Source of the DNA: Eledone cirrhosa | Lineage: Eukaryota | Assembly (NCBI GenBank): GCA_964016885.1 | Contig: OZ024742.1 | Coordinates: forward strand, 91,202,001-91,266,000 | DNA length: 64,000 nucleotides | Reading direction: 5' to 3' | Shown here: positions 18,101 through 23,097 of the stretch, piece by piece | Numbering within the stretch: the stretch's first letter is position 1 | Layout: each line of letters starts with the position of its first letter | Position numbers and translations under genes: made by a program | Notes under the pieces: generated by a model | The model's database searches: none | The model's input: only the letters and a program-made list of their open reading frames with translations | What the model was told of the DNA's origin: nothing

Positions 18101-18271
18101 AAAAAACTTGGTACATCTACATATGTATACGTGTGTGTATTCATATACATACTAGTATTTCAGTATACATATATGGATGTACATCTTTAACTTAATTGTT
18201 TAAGCGTCAGTCATACAAAAGTGAGTTACAAACGAAACGAAGTTTAATTTCGTTTCGTTATTTGTTTTTAT

Positions 18272-18847
18272 ATATATATGTATATATATATATATATGTA
18301 TATATATATATATATATATATATATATATATATATATATATATATATATATATATATATATATATATATATAAATATAAATATATATATATAAATATATA
18401 TATATATATAAATATATATATATATATAAATATATATATATATATAAATATATATATATATATAAATATATATATATATATAAATATATATATATATATA
18501 TATATATAAATATATATATATATATAAATATATACTTATATAAATATATATATATATAAATATATATAATATATAAATATATATATATATATATATATAA
18601 ATATATATATATATATATAAATATATATATATATATATATAAATATATATATATATATATATAAATATAAATATATATAAATATATATATATATAAATAA
18701 ATATATATATATATAAATATATATATATAAATATATATATATATATATATATAAATATATATATATATAAATATATATATATATATATAAATATATATAT
18801 ATATAAATATATATATATATATATATAAATATATATATATATATATA
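18272..18847. repeat. (TA)n/(TAAA) microsatellite separating arrays A and B
   Basis: Directly visible. Confidence 0.97.
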
Positions 18848-19394
18848 GAAACAAAATGAAAACGAAATTTCATTTCTCACTCTTAGTATGGCACTTACTT
18901 AAATGTAAGTATGCATGTATACGTACATACATATATGTATACAGACGTACAGTAGCATGCACATATATATATATATATACATATATATATACATATGCAT
19001 ACAGGTACACATACATATATGCACGTATCAGTTTAGCGGCGCTAACGTCGCTTTGTTCGTTTGTAAACAACTGAACAGCCTGAATTTATGCCATACGGTG
19101 TGGCATAAATTCAGGCTGTTCAGTTTGTTTACAAACGAACAAAGCGACGTTAGCGCCGCTAAACTGATACGTGCATATATGTATGTGTACCTGTATGCAT
19201 ATGTATGTATATATGTATATATATTATATATATATGTGCATGCTACTGTACGTCTGTATACATATATGTATGTACGTATACATGCATACTTACATTTAAG
19301 TAAGTGCCATACTAAGAGTGAGAAATGAAATTTCGTTTTCATTTTGTTTCAATTTATCGTTTTCGGTATGCCTGACCGATTTAACTCACTCAAT

Positions 19395-19443
19395 ATGCAA
19401 ATTAGGCTGCTCAGCCGTTAATTTTCATAAGGAAAGTATATAC
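19395..19443 (+). promoter_or_regulatory. Putative snRNA-type promoter cassette in unit B
   Basis: ATGCAAAT at 19395-19402, tcagccgttaattttcataagg PSE-like block, gtatata at 19436-19442. Confidence 0.5.
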
Positions 19444-19475
19444 TTTCGAACGTTCAACTATCTGGCAGATGGGTA

Positions 19476-19520
19476 AACGGTGCTGATGATAGCTAACAAG
19501 CTTGAAACTAGTACATCGTT
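19476..19520 (+). ncRNA. Minimal type I hammerhead ribozyme, unit B (representative of 5 copies)
   Basis: aacggtg-CTGATGA-T AGC taacaa GCT T-GAAA-C TA GTA-catcgtt; GUA triplet; U-U mismatch at the base of helix II. Confidence 0.8.
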
Positions 19521-21697
19521 CCTGTGTCAGTGTTGAACAAAAAGGTGACGTGGTTGCCTTAACACCGTATGGCATAAATTCAGGCTGTTCAGTTTGTTTA
19601 CAAACGAACAAAGTGACGTTAGCGCCGCTAAACTGATACGTGCATATATGTATGTGTACCTGTATGCATATGTATGTATATATGTATATATATATATATA
19701 TATGTGCATGCTACTGTACGTCTGTATACATATATGTATGTACGTATACATGCATACTTACATTTAAGTAAGTGCCATACTAAGAGTGAGAAATGAAATT
19801 TCGTTTTCATTTTGTTTCAATTTATCGTTTTCGGTATGCCTGACCGATTTAACTCACTCAATATGCAAATTAGGCTGCTCAGCCGTTAATTTTCATAAGG
19901 AAAGTATATACTTTCGAACGTTCAACTATCTGGCAGATGGGTAAACGGTGCTGATGATAGCTAACAAGCTTGAAACTAGTACATCGTTCCTGTGTCAGTG
20001 TTGAACAAAAAGGTGACGTGGTTGCCTTAACACCGTATGGCATAAATTCAGGCTGTTCAGTTTGTTTACAAACGAACAAAGTGACGTTAGCGCCGCTAAA
20101 CTGATACGTGCATATATGTATGTGTACCTGTATGCATATGTATGTATATATGTATATATATATATATATATGTGCATGCTACTGTACGTCTGTATACATA
20201 TATGTATGTACGTATACATGCATACTTACATTTAAGTAAGTGCCATACTAAGAGTGAGAAATGAAATTTCGTTTTCATTTTGTTTCAATTTATCGTTTTC
20301 GGTATGCCTGACCGATTTAACTCACTCAATATGCAAATTAGGCTGCTCAGCCGTTAATTTTCATAAGGAAAGTATATACTTTCGAACGTTCAACTATCTG
20401 GCAGATGGGTAAACGGTGCTGATGATAGCTAACAAGCTTGAAACTAGTACATCGTTCCTGTGTCAGTGTTGAACAAAAAGGTGACGTGGTTGCCTTAACA
20501 CCGTATGGCATAAATTCAGGCTGTTCAGTTTGTTTACAAACGAACAAAGTGACGTTAGCGCCGCTAAACTGATACGTGCATATATGTATGTGTACCTGTA
20601 TGCATATGTATGTATATATGTATATATATATATATATATGTGCATGCTACTGTACGTCTGTATACATATATGTATGTACGTATACATGCATACTTACATT
20701 TAAGTAAGTGCCATACTAAGAGTGAGAAATGAAATTTCGTTTTCATTTTGTTTCAATTTATCGTTTTCGGTATGCCTGACCGATTTAACTCACTCAATAT
20801 GCAAATTAGGCTGCTCAGCCGTTAATTTTCATAAGGAAAGTATATACTTTCGAACGTTCAACTATCTGGCAGATGGGTAAACGGTGCTGATGATAGCTAA
20901 CAAGCTTGAAACTAGTACATCGTTCCTGTGTCAGTGTTGAACAAAAAGGTGACGTGGTTGCCTTAACACCGTATGGCATAAATTCAGGCTGTTCAGTTTG
21001 TTTACAAACGAACAAAGTGACGTTAGCGCCGCTAAACTGATACGTGCATATATGTATGTGTACCTGTATGCATATGTATGTATATATGTATATATATATA
21101 TATATATGTGCATGCTACTGTACGTCTGTATACATATATGTATGTACGTATACATGCATACTTACATTTAAGTAAGTGCCATACTAAGAGTGAGAAATGA
21201 AATTTCGTTTTCATTTTGTTTCAATTTATCGTTTTCGGTATGCCTGACCGATTTAACTCACTCAATATGCAAATTAGGCTGCTCAGCCGTTAATTTTCAT
21301 AAGGAAAGTATATACTTTCGAACGTTCAACTATCTGGCAGATGGGTAAACGGTGCTGATGATAGCTAACAAGCTTGAAACTAGTACATCGTTCCTGTGTC
21401 AGTGTTGAACAAAAAGGTGACGTGGTTGCCTTAACACCGTATGGCATAAATTCAGGCTGTTCAGTTTGTTTACAAACGAACAAAGTGACGTTAGCGCCGC
21501 TAAACTGATACGTGCATATATGTATGTGTACCTGTATGCATATGTATGTATATATGTATATATATATATATATATGTGCATGCTACTGTACGTCTGTATA
21601 CATATATGTATGTACGTATACATGCATACTTACATTTAAGTAAGTGCCATACTAAGAGTGAGAAATGAAATTTCGTTTTCATTTTGTTTCAATTTAT

Positions 21698-23097
21698 ATA
21701 TATATAAATATATATATATAAATATATATATATATAGATATATATGTATATATATAAATATATATATATATGTATATATATAAATATATATATAAATATA
21801 TATATATATATATATATATAAATATATATATATATATATATATAAATATATATATATATATATATATATATATATATATATATAATATATATATATATAT
21901 ATATATATATATAAATATATATATATATATATATATATATATATATATATATATAAATATATATATATATATATATATATATAAATATATATAAATATAT
22001 ATAAATATATAAATATATATAAATATATATATATATATATATATATATAAATATATATAAATATATATAAATATATAAATATATAAATATATATATATAT
22101 ATATATATATATATATATATATAAATATATATATATATATATATATATATATATATATATATATAAATATATATATATATATATATATATAAATATATAT
22201 AAATATATATATATATATAAATATATATATATATATAAATATATATAAATATATATATATATATAAATATATATAAATATATATATAAATATATATAAAT
22301 ATATATATATATATAAATATATATAAATATATATATAAATATATATATATATATAAATATATATAAATATATATATATATATATAAATATATATATATAT
22401 ATATAAATATATATAAATATATATATATATATATATATATATAAATATATATATATATATATAAATATATATATATATATAAATATATATATATATATAA
22501 ATATATATATATATATAAATATATATATATATATAAACATATATATATATATATATATATATAAATATATATATATATATATAAATATATATATATATAT
22601 ATAAATATATATATATATATATATATATATATAAATATATATATATATATATAAATATATATATATATATATATATATATAAATATATATATATAAATAT
22701 ATATATATATATATATATATAAATATATATATATATATAAATATATATATATATATATATATAAATATATATATATATATATATAAATATATATATATAT
22801 ATAAATATATATATATATGTATATATATAAACATATATATATATATATAAATATATATATATATGTATATATATAAACATATATATATATAAATAAATAT
22901 ATATATATATGTATATATATAAACATATATATATATAAATAAATATATATATATATATATATATATATATATATATATATATATATATATAAATATATAT
23001 ATATATATATAAATATATATATATATATATAAATATATATATATATATAAATATAAATATATATATAAATATATATATAAATATATATATATATATA
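21698..23097. repeat. (TA)n/(TAAA) microsatellite
   Basis: Directly visible. Confidence 0.97.

Follow-up and report, generated by a model that had tools for sequence, protein, structure and literature searches.

Architecture of two hammerhead retrozyme arrays in Eledone cirrhosa

The 64,000-nt stretch of Eledone cirrhosa contig OZ024742.1 analysed here (positions 91,202,001 to 91,266,000, forward strand; hereafter the window) carries two tandem repeat arrays, A and B, bounded by (TA)n tracts. Both families are hammerhead-bearing non-LTR (long terminal repeat) retrozymes. The 3′ ends of their arms lie at two fixed positions of the repeat unit, a long site (L) and a short site (S) 59-75 nt upstream of it, and in 84 of the 87 sampled two-armed insertions whose ends both lie at these sites, one arm ends at L and the other at S. 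The features concerned are listed below, with positions counted within the window.

11131..11349, (TA)n tract at the S end of A, common to the long end of a neighbouring hammerhead element
11350..15004, minus strand, left arm of array A, 7.83 units, 3′ end at S (unit position 392) on (TA)n
15001..15012, head-to-head joint of A, 5′ phases 7 and 1, 2-nt overlap
15003..18271, plus strand, right arm of array A, 7.00 identical units, 3′ end at L (unit position 467) on (TA)n
17920..17991, plus strand, hammerhead (type I) in the final A unit, core CTGATGA..GAAAC-TA-GTT with a minimal, palindromic helix III, cleavage predicted just 3′ of unit position 164
18194..18203, plus strand, S in the last A unit (unit positions 390-399), at a small predicted stem-loop just 3′ of the long hairpin
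18203..18271, plus strand, tail of A from S to L, 69-75 nt, including the terminal hairpin 18231-18259
18272..18847, (TA)n tract between A and B, adjoining A at its L end and B at its inverted arm
18848..19101, minus strand, short inverted arm of array B, unit positions 205-461, stopping 7 nt before L
19095..21697, plus strand, main arm of array B, 5.56 units, 3′ end at L (unit position 468)
21345..21393, plus strand, hammerhead (type I) in the final B unit, core CTGATGA..GAAAC-TA-GTA read from the sequence, cleavage predicted just 3′ of unit position 156
21632..21697, plus strand, S of B (unit positions 403-409, loop of a 6-7 bp predicted hairpin) and tail to L, 59 nt
21698..23097, (TA)n tract at the L end of B

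The initial annotation had placed the ends of both arrays at one homologous point, ttat^cgt, and the periodicity of A and B does stop at 18271 and 21697, respectively, where a global unit alignment superimposes the two L sites and, likewise, the two S sites. It had also correctly described the right arm of A as exactly seven units (identical, 467 nt each, 15003-18271), the hairpin preceding the A end, the short inverted B arm stopping about 7 nt from the site (18848, unit position 461) and the remoteness of the ends from the ribozyme, whose predicted cut lies 303 nt (A) or 312 nt (B) upstream. The location of the end thus stood, but its exactness to the base did not: the last TAT may belong to unit or flank, and ends spread over unit positions 461-469. 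What the annotation missed is the second site and the long/short pairing. It had treated the left end of A, 11350, as lying outside the rule; this is unit position 392, at the S site used genome-wide, and hence a normal S end. In the predicted folds, S lies at the small stem-loop after the long hairpin and L about 12 nt after the hairpin.

The units are 467 nt (A) and 468 nt (B) long with a GC content of about 0.35, and share 306 identities over 433 aligned columns (~70%) in global alignment. They are non-coding, and the sole frames of at least 120 aa over the arrays overlap the TA repeats at the left edge of B. Each unit of either family has one type I hammerhead core with a short palindromic helix III. 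All 15 A units match Rfam Hammerhead_HH9 (37.7 bits, E 1e-6), under the gathering score of 52, and no Rfam row for the B hammerhead is among the matches listed. Rfam miRNA rows were rejected as hairpin/TA artefacts, far under their gathering scores. Within the window, A forms a perfect palindrome of 3,263 nt made of identical units, its joint being a near-perfect mirror with a 4-nt loop, and all 15 unit copies carry C276T. In B, unit position 257 is C in the short arm and in the first partial unit of the main arm, and T in the five later units. Copies of both families are many, dispersed and free of LTRs. The 3.0-Gb genome contains 6,976 exact matches to a 20-mer specific to A and 8,445 to a motif that B shares, the first 100 listed of the latter being B-like; units number about 7,000 for A and up to about 8,000 for B.

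The two arms of an insertion end at different sites

Four genomic samples were mapped onto the units, a best-scoring and a positional one for A, a best-scoring one for B and a positional one of B-like copies, the two positional samples being chosen by position along one contig; ends of copies less than 85% identical were classed by eye. For the best-scoring A sample, 39 of 107 candidates were scored, giving 37 loci including the window. Its 26 adjacent two-armed insertions consist of 24 L+S, one L+L and one L+foreign, its single arms end at L in seven cases and at S in two, and 62 of the 63 determined 3′ ends lie at L or S; at locus L052 the S and L ends are about 600 nt apart, and L059 runs into a gap. 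The positional A sample (contig C1; 33 loci, 34 insertions) gave 20 L+S among 22 two-armed insertions, the other two having one other end, together with eight single arms at L and four at S, so that 54 of 56 ends are at L or S. A-family ends occupy unit positions 463-468 at L and 390-399 at S. For B, the best-scoring sample (rotated query, 40 of 99 scored, 39 loci) yielded 21 L+S, the L+L of the window, one L+PLE end (Penelope-like element; L110), two L+foreign (L129, L132), one unresolved insertion (L117), a chimera (L106), single arms at L (seven) and S (two), and three other ends (449, 338 and 331). The B-like positional sample (37 loci, covering the first 100 matches) yielded 19 L+S, one old tangled L+L and one L+foreign, with ten single arms at L and five at S; both ends of L176 lie inside the internal TA run of B.

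Pooled, with pairs having a foreign, unresolved or separated end left out, the four samples contain 84 L+S, three L+L and no S+S pairs among 87, against 43 L+S expected if the arms chose independently (p=6e-22). L and S ends adjoin TA repeats in nearly all cases, L031 and one end in L235 being among the exceptions. This tabulation, which the initial annotation had proposed as a check, found ends at L and S rather than randomly along the unit. The idea of a defined reverse transcription start site is supported, in that 62/63 and 54/56 A ends fall within 15 of the 467 positions.

The 5′ ends behave differently. Those of A arms do not differ from uniform (Kolmogorov-Smirnov (KS) p=0.16), and the idea that A arms favour position 1 as their 5′ end was rejected; of 50 ends, 2.2 would be expected within 10 nt of that position and six are seen there, two of the six coming from the window. 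The start of the right arm at 15003, although confirmed as a coordinate, is therefore probably chance. The 5′ ends of B are borderline non-uniform (KS p=0.05). Of 32 central joints without extra bases, 28 show an overlap of 1 nt or more (47% expected) and 16 an overlap of 2 nt or more (18% expected); extra bases or a nearby change occur in 15 of 47 joints. The 5′ phases are unrelated in 41 of the 47, and either arm may be the longer one; the remaining six are near-mirror joints, with phases within 10 nt, and include both joints of the window.

Penelope-like elements share the end anatomy

The long/short pair of sites is the known tail of PLEs. In this genome the element we call PLE-Y has a 1110-aa open frame whose atlas neighbours are reverse transcriptase (RT)/GIY-YIG proteins at 0.96-0.97; a fragment gives weak RVT_1 and GIY-YIG Pfam matches (E ~2e-4), and the whole protein has no Pfam match at 0.05. 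Its motifs are mixed, with a C-x4-C-x2-C linker, CCHH-like residues, and also RW and DKS. A near full-length copy (L216, 1685-6759) has the uninterrupted 1110-aa frame with an Asn-rich insert, as in Adineta PLEs. PLE-Y ends at two sites, 61 nt from each other, that lie within the first part of its reading frame, and the 13 of 30 loci in which both arm ends are visible are all L+S. The comparison with PLE 3′ termini that was suggested at the outset holds for anatomy; in sequence, the ends of PLE-Y and of a second element, PLE-X, do not match A or B units at the fetched loci. PLE-Y is a candidate donor because B is fused to it in L106 and L110 (unit positions 251 and 255); L110 pairs a long end on its B arm with a short end on its PLE-Y arm. 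A/B sequence beside PLE-Y at 30 loci proved, in the cases examined, to be nested in shared TA tracts. A and B themselves contain no open reading frame (ORF) for RT and GIY-YIG and so are not autonomous PLEs, but they share with PLEs the head-to-head inverted arms, 5′ truncation, one-ended tail and (TA)n bias.

Two neighbours of A in the window likewise have one long and one short end:

7195-9510, 5′-truncated PLE with a short inverted arm, whose GIY-YIG frame (8461-9276, minus strand) scores above the Pfam PF01541 cut-off, ending long at 7195 and short at 9510, tail of about 35 nt
9934-11130, hammerhead element with head-to-head arms and its core near 10957-11000, ending short at 9934 and long at 11130, tail of about 85 nt

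Between 7195 and 23097, four PLE-type insertions are thus chained via TA tracts. LINE-type (long interspersed nuclear element) frames lie at 42638-46261 (open for 1208 aa), 26370-28574 and 50039-52123; all have RT and two have an apurinic/apyrimidinic (APE) endonuclease. Outside the window, other elements sit within the internal TA run of B (L204, 2605-2746; L135, 1866-2096), which means that the B repeat carries its own target site, and B arms in L224 (2150-2530) and L117 (4130-4290) contain or adjoin a common foreign element that looks tRNA-like by eye. The A unit (window 15250-15716) also occurs, joined head to tail at ~95-99% identity, in contigs of runs labelled as three other organisms.

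Both units keep a ATGCAAAT octamer about 90-100 nt upstream of the hammerhead core (A 34-41, window 15036-15043; B 38-45, window 21267-21274). It is a possible small nuclear RNA (snRNA)-type promoter element; an octamer-type promoter is reportedly present in newt satellite 2. All three A>G changes private to L251 and one of those in L056 lie inside the octamer.

Shared variants, A-to-G changes and a probable RNA template

Although many haplotypes exist among A loci, the fixed variants of one arm recur in its partner at 68/68 and 71/72 sites in the two A samples (139/140), and at 5/5 sites in B. These shared variants point to multimers made at insertion in many loci. On the ribozyme strand, fixed variants of the first A sample comprise 18 A>G and two T>C. 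Among 69 pooled A loci, with L052 set aside, single-locus variants carried by every unit, the alleles on which polarity rests, number 11 A>G and one T>C, while single-unit variants number 10 and 11, respectively. Private A>G changes occur in every unit of both arms in L251, L055, L056, L057 and L058, three of them in all 19 covered units of L251. L052 (346-2489) contains a hyper-edited stretch of about one monomer, followed by about 600 nt of another repeat between the arms; the stretch has 43 A>G and no other change, and 42 of the 43 have a 5′ U or A (p=1e-8), the neighbours preferred by ADAR. Its switch from edited to unedited falls between unit position 157 and ~200, bracketing the predicted cut at 164, which is suggestive only, since the interval is about one-tenth of a unit and the case is single. 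The A>G lean of the private A variants, together with this hyper-edited copy, makes RNA the likely template. We read the template as RNA of ribozyme polarity and several loci as one monomer repeatedly copied into both arms.

Proposed insertion mechanism and its rivals

The L+S pairing, scattered 5′ ends, shared variants, A>G marks and identical anatomy in PLEs make it likely that A and B were inserted by a PLE RT/GIY-YIG enzyme that would cut both (TA)n strands and prime from both ends, with one site per arm. In such a scheme, array transcripts would self-cleave into monomers, and the enzyme, probably a dimer, would engage a single RNA at both L and S, with an active site at each. Each RT would then pass its own start, round a circle or by jumping between ribozyme-cut ends, and so write several units, after which the two cDNAs would be joined by 1-5 nt annealing or by end joining; some long arrays would later change at the DNA level. 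A more specific version, in which the dimer loads a single circular ribozyme RNA in a fixed asymmetric register (L + S) and both active sites roll from the two ends of the TA break, is put forward tentatively.

Several observations weigh against this account in whole or in part. The window's own B is one of the three L+L exceptions and carries two alleles at unit position 257. The predicted cleavage triplet of A is GUU in 37 of 37 loci, an unusual hammerhead triplet. The 11:1 pooled A>G count stems from just five loci, and the excess is not clearly replicated in the positional A sample (fixed, 16 A>G and 13 T>C; private, four and two), where direction is blurred by subfamily differences; in B, fixed A>G and T>C number two each. 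Variants in subsets of units in L039, L038 and L065 point to DNA-level turnover or mixed templates; the 14-unit arm of L039 (1993-8676) consists of two unit types in near alternation, which suggests an amplified dimer or DNA-level turnover. The template changes in L052 and L110 mean that one RNA is not always the source of everything. PLE-Y as donor is not proven, since B has other foreign joints in L129, L132 and L171 and A in L040, and no PLE with a terminal repeat homologous to A or B was found among the fetched loci, a genome-wide parent search not having been made. Finally, the Anolis PLE protein PAc shows no start-site difference between strands in vitro and does not need ribozyme cleavage (PMC11167929).

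The same PLE enzyme and two sites could operate on a linear multimeric transcript, or on two RNAs held by an asymmetric dimer, with no circle, which we regard as unlikely. The edited and unedited stretches within one L052 arm, the joining of a B end to a PLE-Y end in L110 and the two alleles of window B would fit such templates, and uncleaved RNA is the main substrate in vitro (PMC11167929). However, edits of a linear multimer would differ by unit, whereas L251 and the four other loci with private A>G share theirs in all units; the agreement of arms at 139 of 140 A sites despite many haplotypes also disfavours it, though a homogeneous source array could match this.

It is quite improbable that one cDNA folds back and is copied into the inverted arm, with the tail arising from endonuclease resolution (PMC3846280, PMC8557442) and arrays growing by unequal crossover, as discussed in bioRxiv 10.64898/2026.07.22.740005. 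Fold-back accounts for the shared variants and for the six near-mirror joints, and turnover in L039 would suit crossover; but the other 41 joints have unrelated 5′ phases with either arm longer, a DNA copy of the first arm cannot yield an arm from another RNA as in L110, and the tail ends coincide with in vitro RT start sites (PMC11167929).

The initial annotation had also offered ttat microhomology with (TA)n, or an RNA polymerase III (Pol III)-like terminator, as what fixes the ends. Recombination or microhomology with (TA)n would be in keeping with the 3-nt TA-type suffix of L, with the non-TA target of L031 overlapping the end by TTAT and with the two L176 ends in the 19-nt internal TA run of B. 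The 22 (A) or 23 (B) sites per unit with a suffix at least as long as that of L, this run included, are almost never used, and S has a suffix of just 1-2 nt, so ttat microhomology is at most a helper in end choice. L does follow T-rich sequence, but a terminator there is not supported: T4 runs occur earlier (A 60 and 92, B 3 and 65) and are absent from S, L is read through again and again within arrays, and PLE-Y has its long end inside its reading frame without a T run. Neither proposal predicts the L+S pairing, and both are very improbable as what sets the ends.

Random satellite growth was rejected as a source of the ends, as the initial annotation had argued, and so was misassembly, for example from fold-back reads: the 3,263-nt perfect palindrome of A invites this hardly credible explanation, but the arms differ in end site and flanks, and in public-run contigs, which possibly derive from the assembled sample itself, TA follows 15400 (S) in 4 contigs and 15469 (L) in 10.

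Comparison with known systems

In LINE-1 twin priming, both target ends prime RT and the inverted arm is joined by microhomology, the second priming site being internal and variable and the template linear. The arrays resemble this in double priming and inverted arm, but their sites are fixed and both arms can be multimers.

Metazoan non-LTR retrozymes (PMC7229834, Cervera and de la Pena 2020; bioRxiv 10.64898/2026.07.22.740005, Li, Clavereau and Pollet 2026) consist, like A and B, of tandem non-coding units that are low in GC and carry a single type I hammerhead; the 467-468-nt units slightly exceed the 150-450 bp given in the former. Both sources propose PLEs as mobilisers and circular RNA as template of tandem cDNA (circular templates also in PMC4209133), and the preprint ties retrozymes to PLEs by distribution and by homology to PLE pseudo-LTRs (pLTRs). 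Fixed termini, inverted arms and long/short pairing are not described in the available portions of either source. Whereas the preprint discusses growth of arrays through local amplification and unequal crossover, the shared variants here point to multimers at insertion in many loci.

In endonuclease-positive (EN+) PLEs the pLTRs are inverted, (TA)n is targeted, and a tail of 30-40 bp is often confined to one end (PMC3846280, PMC8557442). According to these sources, they share with A and B the head-to-head inverted arms, 5′ truncation and one-ended tail; Naiad and Hydra PLEs share the (TA)n targets, and non-autonomous Chlamys the multicopy head-to-tail insertions. A and B differ in having no ORF, in a tail of 59-75 nt, near the 61 nt of PLE-Y, and in the 84/87 pairing, where the EN+ PLE tail is called optional or often one-sided. 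The closest biochemical parallel is PAc, a Poseidon element of Anolis, which cuts and extends both strands in vitro and begins RT at two internal sites bounding the tail (PMC11167929, Frangieh et al. 2024). It is further comparable in its AT-rich target, predicted dimer, and initiation at a stem-loop that shares no homology with the cleaved DNA, but it is an autonomous element with a linear template, and pairing within one product is not addressed in the portions of that paper available. Our literature search, which left subscription literature and preprint supplements largely outside, returned no paper on retrozyme termini, paired arms or edited copies.

Significance

Retrozymes and the PLE tail are themselves known, and the arrays are ordinary in kind. 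The origin of the tandem and inverted ends and tail of PLEs is described as an open problem (PMC8557442), and the proposal that PLEs reverse-transcribe retrozyme circles goes back to 2014-2020, with no mechanistic footprint in the available portions of PMC4209133 and PMC7229834. The A and B families supply a counted footprint, two start sites, a candidate enzyme and a sharp prediction for an in vitro assay, and the strict pairing rule together with the single-molecule marks makes the PLE insertion mechanism directly testable. Should a dimer indeed load a single circle, each two-armed array would preserve one RNA molecule together with its ADAR edits, and the PLE tail would reflect how far apart the two active sites lie. 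If a single RNA is the source, these insertions would represent a natural rolling-circle, double-primed route, by which RNA edits could enter the germ line.

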